DNA of 64,000 nucleotides from NCBI GenBank assembly GCA_000092065.1, contig CP000594.1; one strand, written 5' to 3'. The notes below the pieces were generated by a model. It searched no databases and was not told the DNA's origin. It saw only the letters and a list, made by a program, of their open reading frames with translations. How positions within the stretch are numbered: the first letter of the stretch is position 1; every line of letters begins with the position of its first letter. Origin of the DNA: Ostreococcus lucimarinus (lineage: Eukaryota). The translations under genes and the position numbers were made by a program. Of the stretch, positions 3,001 to 23,353 are shown one piece after another.

Positions 3001-6000
3001 CGACATATTCATCACGCCAAACTCTGGTTCGTAAGTCGTCACTGGGGAGTTCGTGAGCGCAAAGCTACTCGGTACGCCTGACGTGACGGTGATGTTGAAG
3101 TTCAAATCCACGAGCGGCGAGGTGTTCGTGGACATGACGTTTCCAGAACTATCCTTCAGCGTGTTAGTCGTCGAAGAACACGTGATTCCGTGCACACCCA
3201 GCGTGACGGAAGACAAAGTCAAACCGGTGAGTACGGCGGCCCCAGTGCTCAAAGTATTGCCCGTGAGCGTTCCTGAAATAGAAAGTGTCGAGCTGGTGCA
3301 TGCGAAGGCGCGATCAACTGTGTACGAGAGCGTTGACGCATCATAACGGTCGTTCGCGCCCAAGAAGCTTCCCCCAATATCCGCCACATAAATCGTCAAA
3401 TCGCCCAGAGGCGTCGACGATCCGGCATAACGTATGTCAGAGCCGAACTCGAGGGTATGTTTCCACTGATGACCGATGTTGCCTTCGACCAGCTGAACGA
3501 GTTGCTTTGCCGGGCGAATGTAATCCGAACCAGTCGCGTAAAAGGCGATTACGTAATACCCAGCCGGTTGGACATCGAGCGTGATACTATTCGCTGCGAA
3601 CGTCCAAGTGGCTGTTCCAGTTGAATCCGTGACGCTCGTCGTGGAAGTCGGTTCGAGCGTGAAAGAGTCGCCGTATGCCCGAACGTCAACCGAGGCACCA
3701 GACTCCGGCGGCGATGTGATCAAATTATTTCCAGCGTCGTACAATCGCACCGTGATCGCGTTTGGGATGGTCAGCGTCGTTGAAGACGTCGTCATTGAGG
3801 GCACGATATGGTTATCTATCTCCAAATATCTCGGTCGACCGACCACAGTGGTGAATGCGGATATTGCCGAACCAAAGGACGCAGAGAATAGAAATCTGTA
3901 CGTCGCGTCCGCATCGTTTACTCCCCTGGACGCCGCAGGGTAGGTTAGATTGTTTACGAATATCGTTTTACCGGGTGTTCTCGCACCGATCGGTGCAGGA
4001 TTGAGAAGCTTCAAGTCACGGAATACCGCCACGCCTCGATGCGTAGACACTGTCGTGGAGCCATTGATAATCGATCCAGAGGTTCGCGGAGCGTTTGACG
4101 CGTCCACAGATGTCACCGAGATTGAGTGCGAAACTTCGTCAAAGTTGTGCAACCTGTTGCCTGCGGCGTCTAACACGTACACGTTTACGACGCCGACGTC
4201 GGATTCCTCATTAGTGGGCACCACCAATGTGTTTGTTGAGCTCGGTATCGCGGCCAATCCTACAGGCGCTCCAGGCACGACGGTGAAATGGAACGTCGTC
4301 GCCATCGCAAGGGCAATGCAACTTGAACCAGTGCAGTCTTCACCGATGACATCGACGACATAATTACCCATCCGCAAAGGTGCGCTAAAACGTAATTGAA
4401 ACGTTGCCTTACCATCCAAAGTGGTGATGGTGGACGGCACCGTCGTCATCGTCACCCCTGGTGTATCCGTGGAGAGCGAGGTGTTTAGCGTCGCCGTGAT
4501 TTTAAATCCCCGCGTCCCGCCAACGCCAAGATCATCCGCGATGACGGTGCCTCTGTTATCCACCAAGTTCACCGTCATCGCGTCGAGCGTCATTGTCGAC
4601 GCGCCAGCATCTTTCGTTGACTCATACGCAGTGTGAGCGATGTTTTGTCGCGCGTGCGTCACGCGAAGACCATTCGGCGTTCTATGCAGCGCTAGGGCGA
4701 CGCCGGTATGATAATCCACCCCATTCATGCTAAAATCCACCGTCACCGACGTCGGTGGCGGGTCTAACAACCACGGCATTTTCACGTGGTAGTCTCCACA
4801 TCCGTTTGCGCTCGTCGAAGGACAGAGGGGACACGTGACGCGTGTCGAGTTGACGTACGCCGCGTCCAACACGCTCTGAGCGCCGAATCGACATTTGAGC
4901 ACGCCGTCGACGAATGGACCGCCATCGATAGCAATTACCGCTGGATCCCCATTCGGTACTTCTCCCGTAAATAGCACCGAAGGCACGTGTGAATTCGTTA
5001 CCGACGTCGCGACGAGATTCGGCGGGTCGTAATACATGTAATTTGCCATTCCGCCGACCCATATAGAGTTTTCAAAAAACGTCGCGAGCGCGCTGCGATC
5101 GTCCGGATAACCCTCAAAACTGATACTGACGGCCGATATGTACGTACCGGTCGCCGCGAACGCACTGTACGACGGCGCATCGCATTCGATCGTTGTCGAA
5201 TTCACCAGTTTGGCTGGCACATACACGGGCGAACCGTCGTTCAAAAATCGGCACGCCACGCGGTGCGACAGAGTGTCGTCCGGGGCCCAGGAAGAGTCGT
5301 ATGGAAACCCAACACCACGAATCGTGAGCGTTGTCCCACCCGCCTTGGGTCCTCTTGAAGGGGAAATATCATCGATTTCTGTCACGGAGAAGCTTTGGTA
5401 CGAGATTTCTGCGTCCGAAACATTGTACGTCCCTGTGAACAACGCACCCATGCTTGGGATCGTCGTCATCGCACCGATCGGTCTTGTCGACGCCGTCGAC
5501 CCTTGAACTTCCATGCACGCCGATCCGACGCAGTTGGCATCCGGGAATACTTTGACTTTTACTATGCGCGTCGGAGCATTCACGTCTGACGCGTCCTGGC
5601 TCGTGAGGACGTACAGCGTCCCTCCACTCGCACCCCCATCGCTCACTGTCTCGATGGCGAGCGCATCCCTAACTAAACTACCACTCGTTCCTAACTTGAC
5701 GTGTTCTATCGCCGAGCTCGTGTTGTTGAATGATTTTCTAACCCGGTATACGCACGAGATGCGACTGACGCACGTTGCGCCGCACATCGCGCCGTTGTAA
5801 GGCGCACTCGATGTCGCGACGTAAGCATAATCTCCCATCACTCCGAGCGCGGTAAACGCGGTATACCTTCCGAGATAGCTCGACGAAAGCAAAGAATGAC
5901 CTTCGCACGCCGCGTCGATGGCGGTGGCGTCTTTAAAGTACAGCTCCCCATCCGCCGCGATTACGCTCTCGCTCGAGTACGGATTCAGGCGAACAATCGC

Positions 6001-10093: not shown

Positions 10094-11281
10094 ATGGCGG
10101 CGGACTCGAAGCACCTGCAGCGCGTTCTCGTCACCTCGCGCGACGGGCTGACGAGAGAGCTCGACGAAGACGTCGACAGCGTCGTCATCGACTGCGACGG
10201 CGTCGTCTGGAACGGCGACGCGCTGATACCGGGGGCGAAAGCGGCGATAGAGGCGCTGCGGGCGAAGAAGAAGAGGGTCTTTTTCGCGACGAATAACTCG
10301 ACCAAGTCGCGAGCGCACTACGCGGCGAAATTCGCGTCGCTGGGTGTGGACGTGTCGAAATATGAGATATACACGTCGGCGTACGCGGCGGCGATGTACC
10401 TGAAACAGCGAAGGTTCGATGAGATCGAGGACGGGGACGACGCGGAGCCGCGCGGGGAACACGGAGAACGAGTCGGAGACGCGCGACAGAAAAAGGTGTA
10501 CGTGATCGGTGAGAGAGGCGTGATGGAGGAGATGGAGGAGGCGGGGATTGATGTTGAGGCGGGGGTGTACGACAGCGTGCGGTGCACGGGGAGAGATTGG
10601 GAGGAGATGGAGGAGTGGTTGGATCCGGAGAACGACGTCGGGGCGGTGGTGGTTGGGAGCGATTCCGCGTTTACGTTTGCGAAATTGGCGTACGCGTCGC
10701 TGCAGATACAGCGCGGGGCGCTGTTCATCGCCACGAATCCCGATGCGGGGGATAAGATTGGTCGAGCGCTGTATCCAGGGGCGGGCGCGATCGTGAACGC
10801 GGTCGCGACGGCGTGCGGCGAGCAGCCGGAAATTTATTGCGGCAAGCCGAGCTCGTTCATGTTGGATTTGCTCTGCGAGCACACCAACATCGACATGTCC
10901 CGCACGCTCGTCGTCGGCGATAGAATAGACACCGACATTGCGTTCGGCAAGGCGGGTAAAGCCGGGCTCACCGCCCTCGTGTTCACCGGCGTCACCGACT
11001 CTGAACAGCTCAGAGAAAAGTGTCTGCTCGCCGACGCCGACGAATCGCTCGCCGACGCGCTCCCCGATCGCGCCATCGGCTCCCTCGCCGAGCTCGTCGG
11101 GCTGACGTTCGATCCCGACGAAGTCTGCGACAGCGTCAGCGACGTCGACACCGACGTTAACATCGACGAAGACGACATGCTTCGCGCGTTCCCCGTGAGC
11201 GACGCGCCGTTGCCCGAGTGGTCGCAATACGACGACGACGACGATCAATTCGATCAAACGCAGTACGCGCCGGCGTCGTAA
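10094..11281 (+). CDS. Phosphoglycolate phosphatase (HAD superfamily, p-nitrophenyl-phosphatase subfamily)
   Basis: ATG at 10094 (MAADSKHLQ...). HAD motif I VVIDCDGVVW, then GKPSSFMLDLL and VVGDRIDTDIAFG. The ORF-track start at 9959 is upstream of this ATG. Confidence 0.8.
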   Translation: MAADSKHLQRVLVTSRDGLTRELDEDVDSVVIDCDGVVWNGDALIPGAKAAIEALRAKKKRVFFATNNSTKSRAHYAAKFASLGVDVSKYEIYTSAYAAAMYLKQRRFDEIEDGDDAEPRGEHGERVGDARQKKVYVIGERGVMEEMEEAGIDVEAGVYDSVRCTGRDWEEMEEWLDPENDVGAVVVGSDSAFTFAKLAYASLQIQRGALFIATNPDAGDKIGRALYPGAGAIVNAVATACGEQPEIYCGKPSSFMLDLLCEHTNIDMSRTLVVGDRIDTDIAFGKAGKAGLTALVFTGVTDSEQLREKCLLADADESLADALPDRAIGSLAELVGLTFDPDEVCDSVSDVDTDVNIDEDDMLRAFPVSDAPLPEWSQYDDDDDQFDQTQYAPAS

Positions 11282-11464
11282 TTCATCACTATATTTTAAT
11301 CTGTAGTCTGACGAAAGTTTTCGAAATCATTCGCCTCGCCTCGCCCGAGCGCGCCTCGCCCGACCGCGCGGTTTGGGGGGGACTAAAAGTCGGTTAGACT
11401 TTACTACGCGTGGTGAAAATGAATCGTCGTGACCGCACATCTCGGCGCATCGCGCGCGCGCGCG

Positions 11465-11629
11465 ATGGATCTCGCGAAAACGATCCCAAAATGTCTCAAC
11501 GACGCGCAAATCTCGTTGACGACGCACAAGCGCGGCGCCAAGACGCTGTGCGCGGTGCGAAACGAAGACCCAGAGACGTTTTTACCGACGTTTTGTAACG
11601 CAATCTTGCCGGTTTTGCTCGAGTACAAG
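11465..11629 (+). CDS. CAPG: Condensin complex subunit 3 (CAP-G/Cnd3), exon 1 (55 codons, MDLAKTIPKCLNDAQISLTTHKRGAK...LLEYK)
   Basis: ATG at 11465. GTACGC donor at 11630. N-terminal similarity to NCAPG up to the ...YK|RE... junction. Confidence 0.65.
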
Positions 11630-11826
11630 GTACGCTTGGACGCCGCGGCGACGCGCACGCGCGCGGACGATACGGTGTCGTCGTTCGTTGGATGTGGACG
11701 ATCAGAGACGGCGGGAAACGCGCGTGTGAGATGCGAATGCGATGGAACGATGACGCCGGGACGCGGCGAGCGCGCGAGACGGGACGACGACTGACCGAAC
11801 GCGGCGAACGCTCGAACGAGACGCAG

Positions 11827-14610
11827 CGAGACGTGTGCACCGAACGTGTCGTACGATTTATCGTCACCTTTTGCGCGTGGCGCGAGGAAGGAATGGAGGA
11901 AGACGCGGATGAGTTCAACGAGGCGTTTTTGGGATTTTTGCTCAACTTGCACGGAGCGAAGGACAAGGCGGTGCGATTCCGCGCGTGTCAAATCATCGCG
12001 GGTGTGCTGAATGGACTCGGTGCCGACGCTGAGGTGAGCGATGAGTTGTATGAACGCATGACGGACGTGATGCTGGAGCGGATTCGGGATAAGATGCCGC
12101 CGGTGCGGGCGCAGGCGGCGCGAGCGCTGAGTCGTTTGCAAGACGGAGGGGAGACGCAAGATTTCTCGCAGGATGACATCACGCAAGCGTTCGTGGAGTT
12201 GCTCGGAAGCGAAAAGAACAAAGAGGTGCGAAAGGCGATTTTGGGCTCGCTCGCGATCTCTGATTACACGATTCCGTGCGTTGTAGAACGCACGCGGGAC
12301 GTGGCGGAGGACGTTCGTCGCATCGCATTTTTGGCGCTCACGTCCAAGGTGCCCGTCGAGTCGGTGTCTATCGCGCATCGTGCCTTGGTTTTGCGTCGAG
12401 GTTTGAATGATCGCGCACCCATGGTTCGAAGCGCGAGCGTCGAGATGCTCAAGCGATGGCTCGAAGCATTCCAGGGCGACGTCGTGAAATTCCTCACCGC
12501 GCTCGACGTCGAGTCCAACGAATCCGAAGCCGAGCTCGCGCTCAAGGAACTCATCACCATCGGTCGCATCAAGCCTATGGACGTGTGCAAAGACGTCGAG
12601 CTGGTGTCGAAAGGTTTGAAACGCGACATCGACGTCGACGGTCTCATGACGCCCGAAGAAGGGTTGTACTGGCGCGTCGTTTTGCAACATTTGGCCGAAG
12701 CCTCCGCCGTCAAGGGCGCAAATTCGGCGCAGTCGGTCGGTCAAGCGCGGGAAATCGCCGTCGCCGAAGTCGGTGAGATGATCGAAGCTATGGAATCGGC
12801 GTTACCGCCGACGGCGATGGATTTGCTGAGCATCGTGAGCTCGCACGCGAAGAGCGCGGAAGGGAAATTCGCGGCGAGACAACTCCTACCTCTTCTCAAA
12901 TGCGTCGATCTGAACGACGGTGCGATTCGACGAGGCGCCATCAACTTGGTCGCTGAGCAGCTTCACGTCAAACCCGTGGTGAATTCGCACGGATCGTCGT
13001 ACGCGTGCGGGGGTGATGGCAAGTGGGAGAGCGCGCTCGTCGAAATTGCTCGTCTCGTCGCCAACGATTCCACCGAATTCGCCGGTCTCGTTTTGGACGC
13101 CGCAGATTCTCTTCAAATGTCTGGTACTGCCGAATCGCTCACGCAGGCGTTGTACATCGCGGGTTCTTTGCTCGAGCGCACGTCGAAGCGTTTACCATCC
13201 GTCGCCGCCGAAGCCGTGATGGACTCTTTGATCAAGCCCGCGGTGACGCACTCCACCACGGCGGTTCGCCGGGAATCGATGCGCGTGCTGGGTCTCTTAC
13301 TCGCTTCTCAAGGCGTCATCAACCCTGACGCGGTGGTGATTCTGCGAACGGCCTTAAGTGCCGATGCCGCGCCCGTTCGATGCATGGCGGCTCGCGCGCT
13401 CGGCGACGCAGCGCTTCTTCATGGTCCCGCGGCGCTGGACAAATATCGCGTCCTCGTCGATCCGGAGGATGAAGACGTCACTGAATCCGCATTCAACGCG
13501 AGTCTTCCTCTCGAGATTGCACTCATGAAGTGCCTCGATGAAGAAGGAAAACCATTTGTGTTCAAAGCGAACGCGTATGATTTGGAAGACGTAGATGTTG
13601 AAGACGTGGATGCCACCAAGGCCGCCGCGGCGGTGGAGGCGGAGGAAAGCGTCGGCACCGTCGCCGCGGAGTCGCTCTGCAAAATCATCCTTCGTCGCGG
13701 TGAAGGCGCGTTTGAAGCCGCTGCGGCGGTTGTCTCGCGATTGCTTGGCAGCTACTTTGCGGCGGATGCGCAGCGAAGACCGCGTCTCGCACAATGCTTG
13801 GCCGTCTTCTTCCCGGCGCTCGCAAGCGGGCCGGAGGATCGTCGACGCTTGCTCGCGGATTGCGCCCTGCCGGCTTTGCGCGCCGCGGCTAAGATCAAGG
13901 GCTTGTCGCGCGTCGCCGCCCTTCTCGTGCAACTTCTCACCGCGTCCGAAGAACCGACGGCGGGCGGCGCCGAACTCGCCCTCGCGTTGGCGAACGAATC
14001 TCTGGCGTTAAGCACGAAGCAAACGCCATCTGGCGCGCAAGCACCGCTCGCCAAGGCGTACACCAACGCCATCGCTCGCGTGTTATCTGTCGTTCCAGTG
14101 AAATCCACGCGAGACGAAGTCGACGTCGCTGAAAAGGTCGAGCTGAACGACACGTTAACCAAGGCTTGGCACGCCGCCGTGCTCGCGGCGGAGCGAACAA
14201 AGGAAAAGTCTGCGGCCAAGGATTTGGCGATGGCGGCAGAACGTCTTCGCTCGAATTGCCTTGCGACACAAAAGACGGTGGCGCCCGAAACCGAAGGTAG
14301 CGAAGGAATCGCCGTTCCAGCGGATGACGACGACTTATCGACGCAGATGAACGACGACGTTCGCGCCGCCGTGATGGAGTACGCAGAGGAGCTCGCCAAC
14401 GGCGCTGACGTACCGTTTTGCGGTTCTAAAGTGAAAGCCGCCAAGGTGAAAGCCGCGCCCGCGGTGCCGACGCGCGAGTCTCGTTCGCGCGCGAGCAAAA
14501 CTGCGGCGGCGGATAAGCTGAAAGACGACGACTTGAAGAAGCCGCTTCCGAAAGTCACGCCCGAACGCAAGTCTCGTTCTCGACGAGGCGCGCTGCAAGA
14601 AACAAACTGA
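11827..14610 (+). CDS. CAPG: Condensin complex subunit 3 (CAP-G/Cnd3), exon 2. HEAT-repeat protein (DKAVRFRACQIIA, RDKMPPVRAQAARALSRLQ, NKEVRKAILGSL).
   Basis: Acceptor ACGCAG at 11821-11826 preceded by a CGACGACTGACC branch motif. Phase 0, in frame with ORF 11692..14610. The spliced junction LLEYK-RDVCTERVVRFIVTF aligns with human YK-REPAVERVIEFAAKFVTSF. Confidence 0.75.
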   Translation, partial: RDVCTERVVRFIVTFCAWREEGMEEDADEFNEAFLGFLLNLHGAKDKAVRFRACQIIAGVLNGLGADAEVSDELYERMTDVMLERIRDKMPPVRAQAARALSRLQDGGETQDFSQDDITQAFVELLGSEKNKEVRKAILGSLAISDYTIPCVVERTRDVAEDVRRIAFLALTSKVPVESVSIAHRALVLRRGLNDRAPMVRSASVEMLKRWLEAFQGDVVKFLTALDVESNESEAELALKELITIGRIKPMDVCKDVELVSKGLKRDIDVDGLMTPEEGLYWRVVLQHLAEASAVKGANSAQSVGQAREIAVAEVGEMIEAMESALPPTAMDLLSIVSSHAKSAEGKFAARQLLPLLKCVDLNDGAIRRGAINLVAEQLHVKPVVNSHGSSYACGGDGKWESALVEIARLVANDSTEFAGLVLDAADSLQMSGTAESLTQALYIAGSLLERTSKRLPSVAAEAVMDSLIKPAVTHSTTAVRRESMRVLGLLLASQGVINPDAVVILRTALSADAAPVRCMAARALGDAALLHGPAALDKYRVLVDPEDEDVTESAFNASLPLEIALMKCLDEEGKPFVFKANAYDLEDVDVEDVDATKAAAAVEAEESVGTVAAESLCKIILRRGEGAFEAAAAVVSRLLGSYFAADAQRRPRLAQCLAVFFPALASGPEDRRRLLADCALPALRAAAKIKGLSRVAALLVQLLTASEEPTAGGAELALALANESLALSTKQTPSGAQAPLAKAYTNAIARVLSVVPVKSTRDEVDVAEKVELNDTLTKAWHAAVLAAERTKEKSAAKDLAMAAERLRSNCLATQKTVAPETEGSEGIAVPADDDDLSTQMNDDVRAAVMEYAEELANGADVPFCGSKVKAAKVKAAPAVPTRESRSRASKTAAADKLKDDDLKKPLPKVTPERKSRSRRGALQETN

Positions 14611-14655
14611 CGCGAAACATCGATGTGATATTAAATAAACTCCTAACCACACTAC

Positions 14656-15570
14656 TCAGTTCTTCTTCTGGCCACGCCTCAGCTTCATCAGCACGACCGG
14701 CGCGGAGACTTTAACGCGAATATCCAACTGATCGAGATCGTGCCCTCCCTCGACTAACCCCCACTCCTCGATCTGCGCCTCCTCCTCGACGCGCGCCGCC
14801 GCGATGGCTTCATCCACCGTCAGCCCTCCTCGAAGCGTCTTCAAACTTATCAACAACGACTTCGTCGCCGCGCTCAGCGCGAACGCGCACGTCAGCTCCC
14901 ACGGGCACATCGCGTGCAACCGCCGCCGCAGCACCTCCACCGTCTTCTCGCTCGTTCCCGGTCCAAAGATCGAATCCGACGTCTCCACCGGTCCGAACTC
15001 TCGCTCCGCCCACGCCACGATCGGATCGTGCGCCTTCGCCTGCCTCGCCGCCGTCGCCTCGTCCGGGCTTCGCACCCGCGTCGCGTCCGTGCCAAAGTAT
15101 TTCAGCAGCGTCTCCACGTGCACCCGTCGCGTCTCCGCGTCTCCCATGTGATCGATCGCCGTCGCGCTCAGCGACGTCAGCGGCATCGTAAACGGCGCGA
15201 TGCGTTCGCCCTGCGCGTCCCACTCCGCCGCGACCGCGCGCGCCAATCCCTCCGTCGCGAACGCGTACTCGTTTCGCTTCGGCGTTCGCAGCGCGCGCGC
15301 GTCGAGCTCGACGCGCCACGTCCCGTCGCGCGCGTCGCGTTCGCGCGCGTCGACGCGCTCGTAAAACCTCGGCGCCGTGCCGTCGGCGCCCATCGTCATC
15401 GCGACGCGCTCGGACGACGCCTCGCCGCGCGTGCGCCCGACGCGCTTCGCCGCCTCGGCGCGCGCGCGCAGCGACGCGCTGCGCGCGTCGCTCGCGTCGA
15501 CGGGCGCTCGCGACGACGCCGCGCGTCTCAGCGCCGCTCGGACGCGATCGAGCGCGCGACGCGCGCGCAT
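14656..15570 (-). CDS. ATP12: ATP synthase mitochondrial F1 complex assembly factor 2 (ATP12/ATPAF2)
   Basis: ATG confirmed at 15570. ATP12 signature RFYERVD...WRVELDARALRTP...LARAVAAEWDAQ. Confidence 0.7.
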   Translation of the reverse strand: MRARRALDRVRAALRRAASSRAPVDASDARSASLRARAEAAKRVGRTRGEASSERVAMTMGADGTAPRFYERVDARERDARDGTWRVELDARALRTPKRNEYAFATEGLARAVAAEWDAQGERIAPFTMPLTSLSATAIDHMGDAETRRVHVETLLKYFGTDATRVRSPDEATAARQAKAHDPIVAWAEREFGPVETSDSIFGPGTSEKTVEVLRRRLHAMCPWELTCAFALSAATKSLLISLKTLRGGLTVDEAIAAARVEEEAQIEEWGLVEGGHDLDQLDIRVKVSAPVVLMKLRRGQKKN

Positions 15571-15630
15571 GGCGTCGCGATGTGCCGTCGCGATGCGCGC
15601 CGGCGCGCGCGGGCGTCACTCATTCGCGAC

Positions 15631-17340
15631 ATGTCGAGCGACGACGCGTTCGAGGACGCGTTGGACGACGCGCGCGACGACGCAGACGACGCCTCGAGCG
15701 ACGACGCGCGATCGGACGCGTTCGAGGACGCGCTCGGCGCGCACGCGGCGCGATTTCCGTTGCACCGCGCGGCGTTCGAGAACGACGTCGACGCGGTGCG
15801 AGCGCTGCTGGCGCGCGACGACGTCGACGCGAACGCGCGCGACGACGCCGGGCACTGCGCGTTGCACGTCGCGGCGCTGAGGCGCGCGGTGGGGGCGACG
15901 CGGGCGCTGGCGGCGAGCGCGCGGGTGGCGACGGAGGCGCGAGACGCGAGGGGCTGGACGGCGACGCGGTTGGCGACGGATCGAAGGGCGCGCGCGTGCG
16001 TCAGAGCGCTCGTGGAGGCGAACAGAGCGAGAGAAAAGAGGTTGGCGCGAGAGATTCGACCGGAGATGGCGCGGGCGGTGGAGGGCGTGGGGGATTTTGA
16101 GACGCGCGCGGCGTGGCGGTTCGGTTCGCGAGTGTTGGCGCCTTTGATTAAGATGGTGGCGCCCAGAGACGCGTACGCGGTGACGTGCGTGGGGAAAAAG
16201 CTGAGAATCGACGGCGAGTTGAGAGGGATCGATTCCGAGGCGTTGGTGCGGTCGATGATGCCGAAATGGCGACGAGGGAAGTTTAGCTTGATTTACGACG
16301 GCGACGCGGGCGAACGCGCGGCGCTTTGGTTCGTCGATCACGAATCGCGAGAGGTGGTGAACGCGATGGAAAAACCCACGAGACGGGACGGCGATGATGC
16401 CGACGCGGCGTCGACGAGCGATGCGCCGCCGCTCACGGAGGAGGAGATGATTGACGCGATCACGGACGCGTTGCTCGCCGAGGGTGCGGCGAAGAAGAAG
16501 GTGCGAACGGAGGGTTTCAAATTCGCACCGGTGAAAGGATGGATCGCGGGAAAAGCCAGCGCGTGGATTGGAGGACGCAAGGCGGAAATTTGGGAGGCGA
16601 CAGCGAAGCTGGCGCGCGAGACTGTGGCGCCGGGAGGGGGATTTAAACTCGACGGTTCGTTTGAGGAGTACGTGGAGAGCGCGAACGACGCGCGAGAAAA
16701 CGTCGTCACGCGCGCACCTTTGGGCGAGTCTTCGAAAGATAAATCCGGGTTAAACATCGATGATAGTAAGGACATGCCACAGCGTCTTCGTAAGATGTCG
16801 GCGCGATGTTGGCTCGTGCGCGACTTCCCTTTAAAGGCGAGTCAGGCGTCGCAGATTTTGGACGTCTTGGAGCGTGCGAATAAAAACGCCGCGCACGTGA
16901 ACCGCGTGGTGAAGTATTGGTGCTCAAACCACGAAAACATGTTTCCGGTGAAGATCCAAGTCCCGCTTATGCTCACGATTTACGCCCAAGTGCAATTTAA
17001 AGATTTCAAAGCGCTCGACAAGCGCGCTCGGGAAGCCAAGTTGCGAGACGGCTTCTTCGAAATTCCGTCGGATTATCGCGTGAAATCTGTGGATGAGATG
17101 CTCGCTGAAGTGGAAGAGCGCGCAAATCGTGACATGGAACGCATCGAGGCGCTGGATGAGTCGCTGGACGTCGATAACGAGACGGAAGAAATTCGACAGT
17201 TGCGCGTCGAACTAGAACGCCTGGCGAAAAACACGTCGGGCGAAGACGAAGGCGACGATGAATACGAGTTTGACGACGACGACGACGACGAAGACGAAGA
17301 CGACGAAAACTTAGATGCCGATAGAATGAATGTACGCTAG
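15631..17340 (+). CDS. Ankyrin-repeat protein with ANKRD13-type C-terminal (GPCR-chaperone-like) domain and an acidic C-terminus
   Basis: First plausible ATG at 15631 (MSSDDAFEDAL). Ankyrin repeats HRAAFENDVDAVRALLARDD.../GHCALHVAA. The ORF-track start at 14914 overlaps the ATP12 gene and is rejected. Confidence 0.55.
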   Translation: MSSDDAFEDALDDARDDADDASSDDARSDAFEDALGAHAARFPLHRAAFENDVDAVRALLARDDVDANARDDAGHCALHVAALRRAVGATRALAASARVATEARDARGWTATRLATDRRARACVRALVEANRAREKRLAREIRPEMARAVEGVGDFETRAAWRFGSRVLAPLIKMVAPRDAYAVTCVGKKLRIDGELRGIDSEALVRSMMPKWRRGKFSLIYDGDAGERAALWFVDHESREVVNAMEKPTRRDGDDADAASTSDAPPLTEEEMIDAITDALLAEGAAKKKVRTEGFKFAPVKGWIAGKASAWIGGRKAEIWEATAKLARETVAPGGGFKLDGSFEEYVESANDARENVVTRAPLGESSKDKSGLNIDDSKDMPQRLRKMSARCWLVRDFPLKASQASQILDVLERANKNAAHVNRVVKYWCSNHENMFPVKIQVPLMLTIYAQVQFKDFKALDKRAREAKLRDGFFEIPSDYRVKSVDEMLAEVEERANRDMERIEALDESLDVDNETEEIRQLRVELERLAKNTSGEDEGDDEYEFDDDDDDEDEDDENLDADRMNVR

Positions 17341-17384
17341 AACTGTATAATTACACCTTACAACACGAGACGCATCACATCACG

Positions 17385-18086
17385 CTACCCGTTCGCGGCT
17401 TTGACGAGTTTCGCCTCGCCGTACGATCCGTCAAAGTATCTCTCCAACAGAATGGCCGCGCTCGCCGAATCCAGCGCCCCGTTCTCGTTCGACCCCCCAC
17501 TCGTCGCGATGCGTTCCGACGCTTCCTTACTCGTCCTAGACTCGTCGTACGTGTACACCACCAAAGCCTTCGTCTCGGCGTTCGTCGAACGCGCGCACGC
17601 GTCCGCCACCTCTCCCGCGAATCGAGCGCACACCGCGTGCATTTGCACCGCCCCTCTCCCGCGTCCGCGACGATCTTTCGCCGCCCTCCCCGGTGGCACC
17701 GGAATTCCAACCACGATTCTATCGCAGCATTCCTCCAGCGCGACGTCTAAGATGGCTCTGACCGTGCTCGTCGTCGTCGCCGTCCCGCTGTGCGTCAGCG
17801 TTCGCAGCGGCCGCGGCGCCGCGCCACCGTTCGACACCGCCAGACCGACCCTGCGCGCGCCGTAATCCACCCCGAGCGCGATGACATCACCGCGCGCGCG
17901 TCTCGCCGCGCGTAACTCATCCTCGAGCGACGACGACGACGTTTGCGCGTCCGTGAAGGGCGCGCGGCGTTGAGAAAACCACGACGGGGACATCGCGCGC
18001 GCGACGCCTCTGTCGACGCCGTGGCGACGCGCGCGCGACGAGGACGACGGTACGAGCGCGCGCGAGCCGTTCGCCGCGCGAAACAT
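17385..18086 (-). CDS. YqgF/RuvC-like Holliday-junction-resolvase family protein (RuvX; putative organellar pre-16S rRNA nuclease) with an N-terminal targeting extension
   Basis: ATG at 18086. Core motif VIALGVDYGARRVGLAVSNGG and the C-terminal part of the fold. Confidence 0.6.
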   Translation of the reverse strand: MFRAANGSRALVPSSSSRARRHGVDRGVARAMSPSWFSQRRAPFTDAQTSSSSLEDELRAARRARGDVIALGVDYGARRVGLAVSNGGAAPRPLRTLTHSGTATTTSTVRAILDVALEECCDRIVVGIPVPPGRAAKDRRGRGRGAVQMHAVCARFAGEVADACARSTNAETKALVVYTYDESRTSKEASERIATSGGSNENGALDSASAAILLERYFDGSYGEAKLVKAANG

Positions 18087-18236
18087 GGTTCGCGCGGTGA
18101 TGCGCGGCGCGCGGGCGAGTGGCGCGTCGAGCGGCGGCGGCGAGAGGAATCGAGTGGAAGCGTACGCTCGCGACGAACGACCGCGGTGAATGAGGTGTGC
18201 TATTGAAATGAATAGAATCTAATGGCGCGGCGACGC

Positions 18237-20033
18237 TCACGCGCTGGAGGCGAAGAGTTGCGAAAACACGCGCTCTGCCCACGCCGGAATTTCCACGTCG
18301 TTTGCCTGCGTAAAGTTCACGAGCGGTTCCTGGACGTGATAACGAATCTTTCGACCCTTGCTCGCCTTGCGATCGACGTTTTTGCGACGTTTGATTTGTT
18401 TGGAGACGACGGAAGGTCCACCGGCGACGCCGGCGTCGTTGCCGCTCTCGAGGAACTCTTTGAGGAGTTGCTCGTAAAAGTCGACGTCGTCGTAAAGCTC
18501 CGACTCGCGAGCCTCACCTTCGTCCAAGCCATCGACGTTGACGGTTTCGGCTTTGTTCTCGTCGTCATCGTCGGCTTCTTCGCTCCGCACGGCGGCGCGT
18601 CGCTCACCGACGCGAATCGGCGCGCTGCGCTTCGGCGGCTGCGACTTTTCAATCAAACGCGCGGGCGCGCGCATGGTGGACGATACTTGCTGAGAGATGG
18701 ACTGGTTGAACGCCTTCAGACCGCCGCCCGCGCCTCCGCCGACCGCTTTACCCACGGAGACGGCGGATTTTCTGTACCATCGATCGCACGTCGAGTCGCG
18801 GTAGTTTGCGAACGCTCTGTATCCGGCGTCGTGCTTCGTCCACGCGTCGTCCAAGTCGTCGTCCACACCAATCACCGTAGCGTCCGCGCCGAGATTTGAG
18901 GTCGAGGCTATGTCGGCTATGTTCGCCATCAACGCAGTTTGAAGCGCAGAGAGCGTTCGCATGGTCTTCCGTGCGACTTTGGATAACGTCTCGAACGATT
19001 CGCGCGTCTCGGGCGACGCGCGTTTCAGTCCTCGGCACGCCAACGCCGTCGGTAACTTGGCGGCTCCGGTCATGACTTTCTGCAAACGAATTCTCGCGTG
19101 TAGCGCACGCTCCCAAACCGTTCGTTGCGCGCGAACCGCCTTACCTTTCGAGACGTGCTGCGCCTTGGTGTCGACGAGCTTCTTCGTTTGTTCCTCCTCC
19201 TCGCGAAACGCTTGAAGCTCTCGAGCGAGATCTGCGTCGCCTTCCGTGGCGGCGCCCAACAAATCTCTCGCCCGCGCGCCCTGCGCGTCGAACTCATCGC
19301 TCTGATCCTCGTCGTCCTCGTCCTCGTCGTCCTCGTCGCCGCCGTTCCTTCGTCCGGATCCCGTCGCCGCGGCGTCTTCGTCGTACCCTTCGTACGCGTC
19401 GTCGTCCTCATCCGCGTACGGATCCTCATCGCTCGCGTCCCCATCCTCCTCCGCACTTTCCTCGTCGTCGTCCCCGTCGTCCCCGTCGTCGTCGTCGCTC
19501 TCGTCCTCATCCGTCTCGCGCGCCGCCTCCGGTTCGTCCCGCGCGAAGTCCCGCCTCGACGCGCTTCGTCCCGCGTACTCCTCCCCCTCCATCTCGATCG
19601 GTCCTCGCATCCGCAACCGTCCGTCGTTCCCCCCCCCCGCGCGCACCGCGCGCTTTCCTCGCTCCCTCCCTCGCCTCGCCGCGCGTCCGCTCTCGCGATC
19701 GTCGCTCGAATCGTCGCCGAACCCGTCGCCCGCGTCGCGTCCCGCGTCGTCGTCCCACCCATCCTCGCTCCCGCTCTCGTCCTCGTCCAGCGCGCCCTCG
19801 ATCGCGCGCAGCGCCTCGAACGCGCGTTTGCGCGCCTCTACCCCGCCCTCTGGCTCGAGCGCGCGCGCGCGCGCGTCGTCGTCGTCGTCGTCGCGCGTCG
19901 TCGCGCCGCCGCCGGCGTCCCCACCGCGCGTCGTCGCGCCGCGCGCGATCGCGTCCAGCCGCGCCATCGCGTCCGCGCGCGAGGGCGTGGACGAGGGCGA
20001 CGCTTTCGCGCGTCTCCGCGGCGTCGCGCCCAT
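18237..20033 (-). CDS. AATF: Apoptosis-antagonizing transcription factor AATF/Che-1/Bfr2 homologue with a long acidic Asp/Glu-rich N-terminal region
   Basis: C-terminal TRAUB-type signature KASKGRKIRYHVQEPLVNF, plus TVWERALHARIRLQK. ATG at 20033 (MGATPRRR). The ORF-track start at 20117 is non-ATG and lies inside the promoter tandem repeat. Confidence 0.65.
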   Translation of the reverse strand: MGATPRRRAKASPSSTPSRADAMARLDAIARGATTRGGDAGGGATTRDDDDDDARARALEPEGGVEARKRAFEALRAIEGALDEDESGSEDGWDDDAGRDAGDGFGDDSSDDRESGRAARRGRERGKRAVRAGGGNDGRLRMRGPIEMEGEEYAGRSASRRDFARDEPEAARETDEDESDDDDGDDGDDDEESAEEDGDASDEDPYADEDDDAYEGYDEDAAATGSGRRNGGDEDDEDEDDEDQSDEFDAQGARARDLLGAATEGDADLARELQAFREEEEQTKKLVDTKAQHVSKGKAVRAQRTVWERALHARIRLQKVMTGAAKLPTALACRGLKRASPETRESFETLSKVARKTMRTLSALQTALMANIADIASTSNLGADATVIGVDDDLDDAWTKHDAGYRAFANYRDSTCDRWYRKSAVSVGKAVGGGAGGGLKAFNQSISQQVSSTMRAPARLIEKSQPPKRSAPIRVGERRAAVRSEEADDDDENKAETVNVDGLDEGEARESELYDDVDFYEQLLKEFLESGNDAGVAGGPSVVSKQIKRRKNVDRKASKGRKIRYHVQEPLVNFTQANDVEIPAWAERVFSQLFASSA

Positions 20034-20098
20034 GCCGGGCGTCGCGACGGCGCGTGACGCGCGATGGGGACGACGCCGACGGCGGACGCGCGTCGTGT

Positions 20099-20268
20099 AT
20101 AAAAACCCGTCTCGCACTGCGCACCATACGTGATATCAACAAAACCCGTCTCGCACTGCGCACCATACGACGCGAGCAGTGATATGAAAACCCGTCTCGC
20201 ACTGCGCACCATACGACGCGCGCAGTGATATCAACAAAACCCATCTCGCACTGCGCACCATACGACGC
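20099..20268. repeat. Tandem array of about 3.5 copies of a roughly 46-bp unit (AAAACCCGTCTCGCACTGCGCACCATACGACGCG[CA]GCAGTGATATCAAC) in the AATF/PsaD bidirectional promoter
   Basis: Direct reading of lines 20101-20280. The core CCGTCTCGCACTGCGCACCATACG occurs four times at about 46-48 bp spacing. Confidence 0.85.
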
Positions 20269-20389
20269 TACCGCGGCGTATCTCGCGCGCCGCGCGTATC
20301 GCGAGCGATCGCGCGCGGCCGACGCGGGCGCGGCACACGCGCGCGCCCGACGCCCGCGCCCCCGAACTTCGCGGACGCGACACACGACG

Positions 20390-20617
20390 ATGTTTGCCAT
20401 CTCCAGCTCCGCGCTGACGCCGCGCGCGACGGTCGCGAACGCGACGCGCACGCGACGATCGACGACCGCGCGACGATCGACGGCGATCCGCGCCGAGGCG
20501 GAGGGCGCGAAGGCGGCGCCGGCGGCGCCGAAGGCGTGGACGGCGCCGAAGTTGAACCCGAACACGCCGTCGCCGATTTTCGGTGGTTCCACCGGCGGTC
20601 TGTTGAGAAAGGCGCAG
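20390..20617 (+). CDS. PSAD: Photosystem I reaction centre subunit II (PsaD) precursor, exon 1 (transit peptide plus ...[23 protein letters not shown])
   Basis: ATG at 20390. GTGCGC donor at 20618. Conserved PsaD N-terminal motif. Confidence 0.8.
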
Positions 20618-20946
20618 GTGCGCGAGCGACGAGGGAGCGGCGAACGCGCGCGACGATCGAGGCGCGGGCGGGATACGCGACGAACCTAGGGGTGATGATT
20701 GGGGCGATTGGGGCGCCGGCGAACGGAGGGGGGGGGGCGAACGATGCGCGAACGATGCGTCGAGTTTCTTTGCGGCGCGGGCGCGCGGGCGATCGGGGGG
20801 GGGTCGAACGCGCGCGACGACGCGCGCGCAATCGCGCGATCGGGCGCGGTGGGATGGGAACGTTTGGCGCGAGGCGCGCGGGGGGGATTTCAAAGACGAC
20901 GACGACGCGAGACTGACGGATGCGATGATGCGTTTGACGCGTGTAG

Positions 20947-21006
20947 GTTGAGGAGTTCTACGTGCTGACGTGGGAAGCGAAGAAGGAAGCCATCTTCGAG
21001 ATGCCG
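20947..21006 (+). CDS. PSAD: PsaD exon 2 (VEEFYVLTWEAKKEAIFEMP)
   Basis: Acceptor GTGTAG at 20941-20946 with a CGAGACTGACG branch motif upstream. GTGCGT donor at 21007. The peptide matches plant PsaD EEFYVITWESPKEQIFEMP. Confidence 0.8.
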
Positions 21007-21163
21007 GTGCGTGGACGAGGCGAGCGCGAAGGCGCGCGCGCGCGAAGATATCGCGCGCTTTGAAACGACGCGACGACGAAGAGGCAAAGATTGGGGATGC
21101 GCGACGCGATCGTGGACGCGAAACAGCGACTGACGTGATGAAACGTGTATTTTGCATCCGCAG

Positions 21164-21454
21164 ACCGGTGGTGCCGCGATCATGCGCAAGGGCCCGAACC
21201 TGTTGAAGCTCGCGCGCAAGGAGCAATGCCTCGCGCTTTTGAACAACTTCCGCGCGAAGATGAAGCTCGACGGCTGCATCTACCGCGTGTTCCCGTCCGG
21301 TGAGGTGCAATACTTGCACCCGAAGGATGGTGTGTACCCGGAGAAGGTGAACAAGGGTCGCGTCGGTGCCAACCAGAACATGCGATCGATCGGCAAGAAC
21401 ACCAACCCGGCGTCGATCAAGTTCCAAGGCAAGCTCGGCCCGTTCGAAGTTTAG
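21164..21454 (+). CDS. PSAD: PsaD exon 3 ([26 protein letters not shown]...[24 protein letters not shown]...)
   Basis: Acceptor CCGCAG at 21158-21163 with a GCGACTGACG branch motif upstream. In frame with ORF 21152..21454. Strongly conserved PsaD core. Confidence 0.85.
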
Positions 21455-21879
21455 ACAGACGGCTCGCGCTCGCCGCGCACCGAGGGTTCGGTCGTCGTCG
21501 TCGAGTCGCCGCTCGAGTCAGATGTCCGTCGATGTGTTTCACTCTTCGCGATGCGAAGTCAACGCGAGATGGCGCTCGTTTGAATTATTAGAATTCTTCG
21601 ACGTCCCTCGCGCTTTGCGTCGCGTCGAGCGCGCTTCGACGTTCGCGGCGTCTGATTTCTTCGCGCGGCGTCGCTCGACGCTTCGATCTCACCCTCTGCG
21701 CGCGATCGTGATGTAAATCACGCCTCCTAGCCAAACTAATTGCAGTAACACACAGATTTTCACTGTTCATCCGCGCGCGCGCGTTCGCCCGCCCGCGCGC
21801 GATCGCCGGTCGCCGGTCGAGATCTTCGCCGCGATGACGCTGGCTGCGCGCCGTGGAATGACGCACATCGTATTTTAGA

Positions 21880-21960
21880 GCCATTATATATGCAAGATAC
21901 GTTTTTAGGGTTTACCTATAATTTCGCGCGATCGGATCTTATCTGAGAAAATCTATACTG
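21880..21960 (+). promoter_or_regulatory. AT-rich island (TTATATATGCAAGATACGTTTTTAGGGTTTACCTATAATTTCG) between the PsaD 3' end and the CHL27 ATG. Candidate PsaD polyadenylation region and/or CHL27 core promoter (TATA-like).
   Basis: Sharp local AT enrichment in otherwise ~65% GC DNA, about 170-250 bp upstream of the ATG at 22127. Confidence 0.3.
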
Positions 21961-22126: not shown

Positions 22127-23353
22127 ATGCACGCGTTCACCATGCGCGCGAGCGCGATGAAGACGCCGGTGGCGAAGATGACGTCGAGATCGCGATCGGC
22201 GACGCGACGCCAAGGCGCCGTGGTCGTCCGCGCGGCCGCGGCGACGGACGCGGAGACTGGGATCAAGAAGATGCGCGAGGGTATCAAGGAGGCGGCGAAC
22301 GAAAACTTGTTGACGCCGCGATTTTACACGACGGATTTCGACGAGATGGAGCGCCTGTTCAGCACGGAGATCAACCCGAACTTGGACGAGACGGAGATTA
22401 ACGCCATCTTGAACGAGTTCCGCGAGGATTTCAACCAGAAGCACTTCGTGCGCAACGATGAGTTCAAGGCGGCGGCGGATCAGATCAAGGGTGAGCCGCG
22501 CAGAATTTTCATCGAGTTTTTGGAGCGCTCGTGCACGGCGGAGTTTAGCGGGTTTTTGTTGTACAAGGAACTCGGCCGCAGATTGAAGAAGACGGCCCCG
22601 GCGGTGGCGGAGATCTTCACGTTGATGTCCCGCGACGAGGCGCGTCACGCTGGGTTCTTGAACAAGGCGATGAGCGATTTCAACTTGGCGCTCGACCTCG
22701 GGTTTTTGACCAAGAACCGCCAATACACGTTTTTCCAGCCGAAGTTCATCATGTACGCCACGTACTTGAGCGAAAAGATTGGCTACTGGCGTTACATCTC
22801 CATCTACCGCCACTTGCAAGCGAATCCGGACGAGCAATTGTACCCGTTGTTCAAGTACTTTGAGAACTGGTGCCAAGACGAAAACCGTCACGGCGACTTC
22901 TTCTCGGCGATTTTGAAGGCGCGCCCGGAGTTGATCAACACCACCGAAGCGAAGCTCTGGTCTCGATTCTTCTGCTTGTCCGTGTACGTCACCATGTACT
23001 TGAACGATCACGGCCGCAGTGAGTTCTACGAATCGCTCGGTTTGGACACGACGCAATTCAACATGCACGTCATTCACCAAACCAACAAGACGACGGCGAC
23101 GATTTTCCCGCAAGTCATCGACACCTACAACCCGGAGTTCAAGGCGCGTCTCGACAAGCTCGTCGGCGTGAACACCCAACTCCAAGCCATCGGTAAGGGT
23201 GAAGGTTCGGAAATCATGAAGAACTTGCAAAAGGCGCCGCTCATCGCCACCTTCGCGGGTGAGTTGATCGGTTTGTTGGCCATGGCTCCGGTCGACGCCG
23301 GTTCCATCGACTTGACCGGCGTTCCGGAATCCGACCCGTCCTTCATGTACTAA
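22127..23353 (+). CDS. CHL27: Mg-protoporphyrin IX monomethyl ester (oxidative) cyclase, plastid di-iron enzyme (CHL27/CRD1/AcsF)
   Basis: ATG at 22127. Full-length match to AcsF/CHL27 ([56 protein letters not shown]) with an N-terminal transit peptide. Confidence 0.9.

Follow-up and report, generated by a model that had tools for sequence, protein, structure and literature searches.

A species-specific, highly polymorphic tandem repeat built from a probably older promoter box lies between the divergent AATF and PsaD genes of Ostreococcus lucimarinus

The short spacer between the divergently transcribed AATF and PsaD genes of Ostreococcus lucimarinus contains a real, species-specific and highly polymorphic tandem repeat array, built from a promoter box that is probably older than the species. 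The array is of an ordinary kind, a promoter VNTR. We consider it probable that it is a hypervariable promoter minisatellite, specific to O. lucimarinus, that multiplies a local promoter box and acts as a quantitative modifier of PsaD and/or AATF expression. From comparisons at the sequence level we infer that it would be an evolvable modifier, rather than an essential or genome-wide light-response element.

The DNA analysed here is a stretch of 64,000 nucleotides from contig CP000594.1 of the O. lucimarinus assembly GCA_000092065.1, referred to below as the window. Window positions 20102-20268 consist of four head-to-tail copies of a 29-nt core, AAAACCCGTCTCGCACTGCGCACCATACG, and the tails between them are 10, 17 and 20 nt long (Table 1). 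In a repeat search of the window the core copies start at 20102, 20141, 20187 and 20236, with spacings of 39, 46 and 49, while TRF reports 2.9 copies of period 46 at 20130-20268 (89% matches, score 236). This is the top TRF score of the 64 kb, and the array is the sole high scorer that is not CG-rich low-complexity sequence. The 24-nt core word CCGTCTCGCACTGCGCACCATACG has four matches (three exact, one with one mismatch), against none in 100 dinucleotide shuffles. Each unit can be described as the 29-nt core AAAACCC[G/A]TCTCGCACTGCGCACCATACG followed by a tail, TGATATCAAC, ACGCGAGCAGTGATATG or ACGCGCGCAGTGATATCAAC; a degenerate version of the box is AAAACNNNTCNNGCACNG. The original prediction, of about 3.5 near-perfect copies of a 46-bp unit, was right about the place of the array. 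The repeat-finder check that it had proposed for the exact copy number gives four cores, and the units are not uniform, measuring 39, 46 and 49 bp with a last, partial one of 33 bp that merges into unique promoter DNA. This partial unit 4 is the PsaD-proximal box; it is found in every haplotype and has a counterpart in both the sister lineage L009 and O. tauri. Among the array units a perfect 8-bp inverted repeat, CACTGCGC/GCGCAGTG, is confined to unit 3.

Table 1. Positions of the array units and of the neighbouring gene features in the window.
Feature	Position	Strand	Evidence or remark
AATF/Che-1 (Bfr2-like) ORF, ATG at 20033	18237..20033	-	ORF; homologues; Pfam AATF-Che1 and TRAUB on orthologous gene calls
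Left flank ACGCGCGTCGTGTAT, resembling a diverged unit tail (ACGCGCGTCGTGTATA)	20086..20101	+	Joins unit exchange in other haplotypes
TATAAAAA, perfect, at the junction of left flank and unit 1	20098..20105	+	Reference strain only; other haplotypes have TATGAAAA or TATCAAAA
Unit 1, 39 bp: core and tail TGATATCAAC	20102..20140	+	
Unit 2, 46 bp: core and tail ACGCGAGCAGTGATATG	20141..20186	+	
Unit 3, 49 bp: core and tail ACGCGCGCAGTGATATCAAC	20187..20235	+	
Unit 4, partial, 33 bp: core with G>A (AAAACCCATCTC...), then ACGC into unique DNA	20236..20268	+	
Unique GC-rich PsaD proximal promoter	20269..20345	+	pi = 0.020 among 12 haplotypes
PsaD 5' UTR	20344..20389	+	mRNA 5' ends at -42, -43 and -46 from the ATG
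PsaD exons 1, 2, 3	20390-20617, 20947-21006, 21164-21454	+	ATG 20390; spliced transcript contigs

The divergent gene calls on which the original prediction was based, AATF on the minus strand from 20033 and PsaD on the plus strand from 20390, hold. The former is backed by the Pfam AATF-Che1 and TRAUB domains, and the three-exon spliced product of the latter shows 100% identity with the PsaD protein of Ostreococcus lucimarinus CCE9901. The window is thus nuclear DNA of O. lucimarinus; an origin from Micromonas with introner elements, which the GC-rich CGCG composition had at first suggested, is rejected by the PsaD identity. The spliced PsaD gene is matched exactly by a metatranscriptome cDNA contig, a poly(A) tract in a transcript contig places the poly(A) site at ~21767, and spliced metatranscriptome contigs confirm both introns (20618-20946, 329 nt, and 21007-21163, 157 nt), which are GT-AG introns starting with GTGCG. 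The distance from the AATF ATG to the array is 68 bp; each unit has one ATG on the minus strand, which an AATF transcription start within the array would bring into the 5' UTR of that gene. The AATF 5' coding part (window 19100-20033) contains acidic, low-complexity trinucleotide repeats and is highly diverse (pi 0.0245), and gene calls for this protein range from 449 to 753 aa among haplotypes, which suggests a length polymorphism of the coding repeats. Downstream of PsaD, the gene at 22127-23353, named from a Pfam Rubrerythrin match, is one that we take to encode the CHL27-type Mg-protoporphyrin monomethyl-ester cyclase.

To place the array relative to the PsaD message we used six spliced transcript contigs from independent metatranscriptomes, after removal of adapters and of two strand-switch chimeras. 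In these contigs the genuine 5' UTR is 14-46 nt long; this is a lower bound, and the true start is possibly a few nucleotides farther upstream. None of the six enters the array. Three of them (L018, L020 and L021) end at -42, -43 and -46 from the PsaD ATG, two abutting sequencing adapters, so that the mRNA 5' end should lie near window 20344-20348. Given this position, the array occupies about -76 to -245 and is outside the PsaD mRNA. The chimeric starts, L016 1-48 and L017 1-20, are reverse-complemented PsaD sequence (coding in L016, 3' UTR in L017) and thus provide no evidence of upstream transcription starts. Among 12 haplotypes the 5' UTR (window 20346-20389) is the most diverse segment measured, with a pi of 0.049; in the PsaD exons and 3' UTR there is almost no variation (pi 0-0.004).

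Variation of the array was followed in wild populations. Ten syntenic marine-metagenome loci (L001-L010) were found through the exact CHL27 protein, for which many such contigs have the gene, and five JGI metagenome contigs (L011-L015) by a scan for the 22-mer core. Fourteen of these 15 fetched loci are 97.6-99.7% identical to the window and the remaining one, L009, is 94.9% identical; the reference and the 14 loci, L009 being left out, constitute 15 O. lucimarinus haplotypes. The number of cores, as read from what are mostly short-read metagenome assemblies, in which tandem repeats can be collapsed or wrongly joined, is 2-4 per haplotype and 43 in total, and nearly all the arrays are unique. 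The 28 inter-core tails represent 19 different sequences, 9-20 nt long with additional variants of 36, 78 and 115 nt. Periods between cores in the haplotype arrays range from 38 to 49 bp and keep no helical phase, which argues against cooperative arrays of a factor. The ATG-to-ATG spacer between AATF and PsaD is 262-460 bp, and the array within it differs in length about three-fold, from roughly 95 to 300 bp. With a diversity of only 0.016-0.020 in the adjoining promoter flanks, the variation of the tails is far above background. In the comparison with sister strains that had been suggested for this locus, copy number as given by these assemblies thus varies freely. Taken together, the array is a minisatellite by its head-to-tail units in the range of ~10-100 bp, its intraspecific variation in copy number and unit, and its non-coding position.

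Several details of these alleles bear on how far the assemblies can be trusted and on how the array changes. L006 and L012, from independent samples, have in common one complex allele with a ~95-nt AT-rich insertion within unit 1, which argues against pure assembly noise. The insertion (about 7920-8010 in L006, at the contig end in L012) is bordered by 8-bp direct repeats, CGACCGGT, and the L006 insertion has no further copy in any fetched DNA. The array is the contig end in four of the five JGI contigs, as is expected where samples are polymorphic at that place. In L011 (JACLAB010012161.1, 8894-9581) window 10498-19370 in plus orientation is joined straight to 20781-20141 in minus orientation; a repeat-seeded assembly chimera is the more likely reading of this junction, rather than an inversion that took in the promoter and the 5' part of PsaD. 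Some tails in L007 (ACGCGCGTCGTGATATC and ACGCGCGTCGTGTATG) and in L015 (TCGTGTATG) are chimeras, part left flank and part internal tail, and they point to misaligned (unequal) exchange or slippage.

Copy number, unit length and large insertions that vary so freely among near-identical haplotypes, without a helical phase kept between cores, are what would be seen if the array were a selectively neutral minisatellite, that is, a slippage by-product in a tolerant spacer with a copy number that has no effect on either gene. We regard this as a serious rival and as a possible, although not the favoured, account of the array. It has to contend with the presence of at least two cores in all 15 haplotypes, and with the location of the array, which is less than 250 bp away from where the PsaD mRNA begins and 70 bp away from the ATG of AATF, within a spacer of 260-460 bp that must hold two promoters.

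The core was compared with its flanks for lower variability. Across the 43 cores only 1.4% of positions deviate from the consensus, and the central TCTCGCACTGCGCACCAT never varies. Of the 29 core columns 5-6 are variable, against 5 of 78 in the flanking promoter. Per-column variability is thus not clearly lower in the core than in the flanks, and we rejected special constraint on the core for this reason; core uniformity alone is no proof of constraint. It can be explained by recent duplication and conversion alone, and a uniformity not stronger than that of the flanking promoter agrees with neutrality.

What remains is an asymmetry between the two arms of the inverted repeat of unit 3. The core arm CACTGCGC is invariant in 43 of 43 copies, whereas its partner in the tail, GCGCAGTG, is either missing or replaced by one of many variants, such as GAGCAGTG, GAGCGGTG, GCGCCGTG and GCGTCGTG. 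A DNA hairpin of 8 bp is formed solely in the 49-nt unit (-9.3 kcal/mol, z -2.4), other unit variants having z values of about 0, and its loss in these variants without a compensating change indicates that no structure is conserved. This inverted repeat, and the 8-bp direct repeats around the insertion of the L006/L012 allele, are the features that could recall small RNA genes in tandem, a short repeated coding sequence or what is left of a mobile element, a reading to which we give hardly any credence. A search of Rfam at E values up to 10 returned no match in 19000-21500, and the array is in none of the transcript contigs. The indels by which units of 38-49 nt differ in length are not multiples of three, so that no reading frame is kept. 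No terminal inverted repeats were found at the array, and searches of the window, of the fetched loci, of IMG/VR and of the metagenome contigs gave no dispersed copies. A viral or mobile origin was rejected: the core has no IMG/VR match, and the L006 insertion is single-copy in the fetched DNA.

Comparison with other Ostreococcus lineages suggests where the unit came from. In L001 (98.6% identical to the window), as in the sister lineage L009, there are just two boxes with a period of 107 bp, and their inter-box spacers are orthologous (96.6% over 59 nt). The two boxes are 76% alike in L009 and identical for 24 nt in L001. Judged by this pattern, the two-box, 107-bp layout of L001 and L009 looks like the ancestral state.

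O. tauri has the same AATF/PsaD gene order as the window. The sole significant block between the two spacers is the GC-rich core promoter just upstream of the PsaD mRNA 5' end, at about 20302-20354, with a local alignment score of 57 against a shuffle maximum of 50 (0 of 200 shuffles). Immediately upstream of this block, the O. tauri sequence GAAAACGAATCGTGCACCG matches the proximal box of L009 at 15 of 19 positions, a level reached by none of 500 shuffles; the derived O. lucimarinus core matches it at 12 of 18 (44 of 500 shuffles). Such a match of the proximal box with O. tauri, if it reflects conservation, is not what neutrality would lead one to expect. The O. tauri spacer (L022, CAID01000015.2) also has a direct repeat of its own, of 80 nt, at 3684-3763 and 3797-3876; its two copies have a period of 113 bp and are 95% identical, and their sequence is unrelated to the O. 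lucimarinus unit. This repeat is an independent duplication in the same promoter, and as such it speaks against neutrality as well.

On the other hand, L024 and L027, two other lineages of Ostreococcus in which this gene order is kept, have neither the box nor any repeat in the spacer, so that PsaD expression in the genus does not depend on the box. The lack of an array in these two syntenic lineages is in keeping with a neutral minisatellite. L025, L026, L028 and L029, reached through AATF homologues, were left out, as they have no PsaD beside AATF.

Each of the five lineages compared has a low-GC island midway in the spacer, and in the reference strain this island is the array. The array has a GC content of 52-60% against 75-90% in its flanks, and its CpG density, 0.126 per bp, is under half of the 0.28-0.30 of the flanks. 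The island occupies the same spacer in the five lineages with unrelated sequences, and this raises the question of whether the array might be chiefly a chromatin element, one that is low in GC and poor in CpG and that would form or size a nucleosome-free region through its length and not its sequence. Algae of the Mamiellales type have unusually well-positioned nucleosomes, with methylation only in linker DNA, according to Huff and Zilberman (2014) as summarised in PMC5728721, and such nucleosome positioning and linker-confined methylation would suit an element of this type. Its about three-fold range of length (~95-300 bp), however, means that no particular length is maintained, and we judge a chiefly chromatin-based role unlikely. 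A role of the array as a chromatin spacer would nevertheless be compatible with the quantitative modifier that we favour.

The original prediction also proposed that the repeats might be a multimerised binding module, and suggested looking for the core upstream of other photosynthesis genes. The position fits, as the array is upstream of the PsaD mRNA, and the proximal copy of the box appears to be conserved; sharing of the motif is the part that found no support. The rest of the 64 kb, the promoter of the chlorophyll-synthesis gene CHL27, 1.7 kb away, included, has no copy of the 24-mer, of any core 12-mer or of the degenerate box AAAACNNNTCNNGCACNG. A 16-mer with up to three mismatches has one match only in the rest of the 64 kb, at chance level, and those longer words of the unit that do recur there are CG-rich tail sequence only. 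In the metagenome contig collection the 22-mer was found in five contigs, all five being the same locus, which was thereby covered five times, and the core 18-mer has no match in IMG/VR. The core is consequently not a motif common to photosynthesis promoters within this material: the 64 kb holds no other copy, and the metagenome matches are all from one locus. Its absence from any other locus in the window, the metagenome contigs and IMG/VR is again in line with a neutral array; this absence and the free variation in copy number are two of the signs by which the original prediction would have recognised a neutral minisatellite.

These searches leave little room for a multimerised light-response module, in which the repeats would be sites for a factor that co-regulates photosynthesis genes. 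The array is indeed upstream of a highly expressed photosystem I gene, its box is partly conserved in O. tauri, and an ACGTG core (CCATACGTGATATC) is present in unit 1 of the reference, ACGTG being found in the O. tauri repeat too. But the 24-mer, the 16-mer with three mismatches and AAAACNNNTCNNGCACNG are at no other promoter in the 64 kb, the metagenome matches to the 22-mer, from a collection that covers the locus five times, are all this one locus, ACGTG is in one unit of one haplotype only, where it arose by a deletion, and the box is missing from L024 and L027. We therefore consider such a module very improbable. The G-box/Z-box ATACGTGAT, seen in unit 1 and in the O. tauri repeat, was rejected as a candidate, since it is limited to that one unit in one haplotype and stems from a deletion; by our own estimate a common 9-mer between such sequences is expected about 0.6 times by chance.

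A second candidate motif is the plant telo-box, AAACCCTA. In plants, genes of the ribosome-biogenesis type, the class to which AATF belongs, often carry telo-boxes, and the array units likewise start with AAAACCC. The units, however, read AAAACCCG or AAAACCCA: the base after AAAACCC is G or A and not T, so that the telo-box consensus is not matched. Elsewhere in the window, TTAGGGTTT occurs at 21905-21913 as the sole copy in the 64 kb, in an AT-rich patch 222 bp upstream of the CHL27 ATG. This sequence matches the plant telo-box consensus and the plant-type telomere repeat. It is conserved in L001, L006 and L009; the DNA fetched for O. tauri, L024 and L027 yielded no copy.

A scheme that would account for the observations, and that underlies our preference for a box-multiplying modifier, starts from an ancestral AATF/PsaD divergent promoter with two related boxes (GAAAACC..TC.CGC...), one on either side of a low-GC spacer and at a distance of ~107 bp. 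These boxes would then have become homogenised in O. lucimarinus and the spacer would have collapsed, in most haplotypes, to a tail of 9-20 nt; the resulting 38-49-bp unit could then have been repeatedly gained, lost and recombined. As the mechanism that generated the array we infer replication slippage together with unequal exchange, the latter probably taking place among units and with the tail-like left flank. The short inverted repeat of the unit possibly aids slippage or exchange. Changes in copy number would alter the dose of the binding site for one factor as well as the distance between both promoters. Since each unit carries a box whose proximal copy appears to be conserved beyond the species, copy number probably does change the site dose, and a quantitative effect of box number or spacer length on the expression from one or both promoters is plausible.

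Literature searches found no description of this array, but comparable elements are familiar from other systems. The VNTR of the human INS promoter consists of 14-15-bp G-rich units in tens to hundreds of copies. It is, like the array, a minisatellite directly upstream of a highly expressed gene, with variants in unit sequence and copy number that define allele classes; the array differs in having 2-4 copies and units made of a recognisable promoter box and a collapsed spacer. The 72-bp repeats of SV40 and the doubled CaMV 35S enhancer have a fixed copy number, and their bound factors and gain in activity have been demonstrated. They resemble the array as head-to-tail duplications of a promoter-proximal segment, and in SV40 and CaMV such a duplication can raise promoter output; the array, known here from its sequence, is by contrast polymorphic in copy number. 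The nearest parallel in location is the O. tauri repeat (L022 3684-3876), a low-GC duplicated segment in the same promoter and gene order, although it differs from the array in its sequence, its longer period and its just two copies.

Promoter-proximal tandem repeats are common in general surveys and can alter expression and nucleosome positioning (PMC3887541). The yeast promoter repeats of Vinces et al. (2009), as cited in PMC3887541, resemble the array: they are situated within a few hundred bp upstream of a gene, where the promoter is poor in nucleosomes, natural strains differ in their copy number, and they are proposed to tune expression quantitatively. Most of the yeast repeats have short AT-rich units whose effects on expression and nucleosomes have been measured, whereas the array has a 38-49-bp unit with a GC-rich box in a bidirectional picoalgal promoter.

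The array is a compact and highly polymorphic marker that separates O. lucimarinus haplotypes otherwise ~99% identical. Metagenomes give its alleles directly, and assemblies break where it lies. The natural alleles with 2-4 boxes represent a ready-made deletion series for promoter dissection and for expression cassettes in Ostreococcus. A stronger version of the modifier is that the array is an adaptive tuning knob, with wild 2-, 3- and 4-box alleles setting different levels of PsaD or AATF expression; we hold this to be a doubtful extension of what the sequences suggest. If it were true, it would, together with the duplication in O. tauri, imply that selection in picoalgae has repeatedly favoured the multiplication of promoter elements upstream of PsaD, and the 'transcriptional evolvability' conferred by promoter repeats would be acting on ocean photosynthesis. 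Should copy number affect expression at all, the locus would document evolvability through promoter repeats in a marine primary producer that is abundant worldwide.
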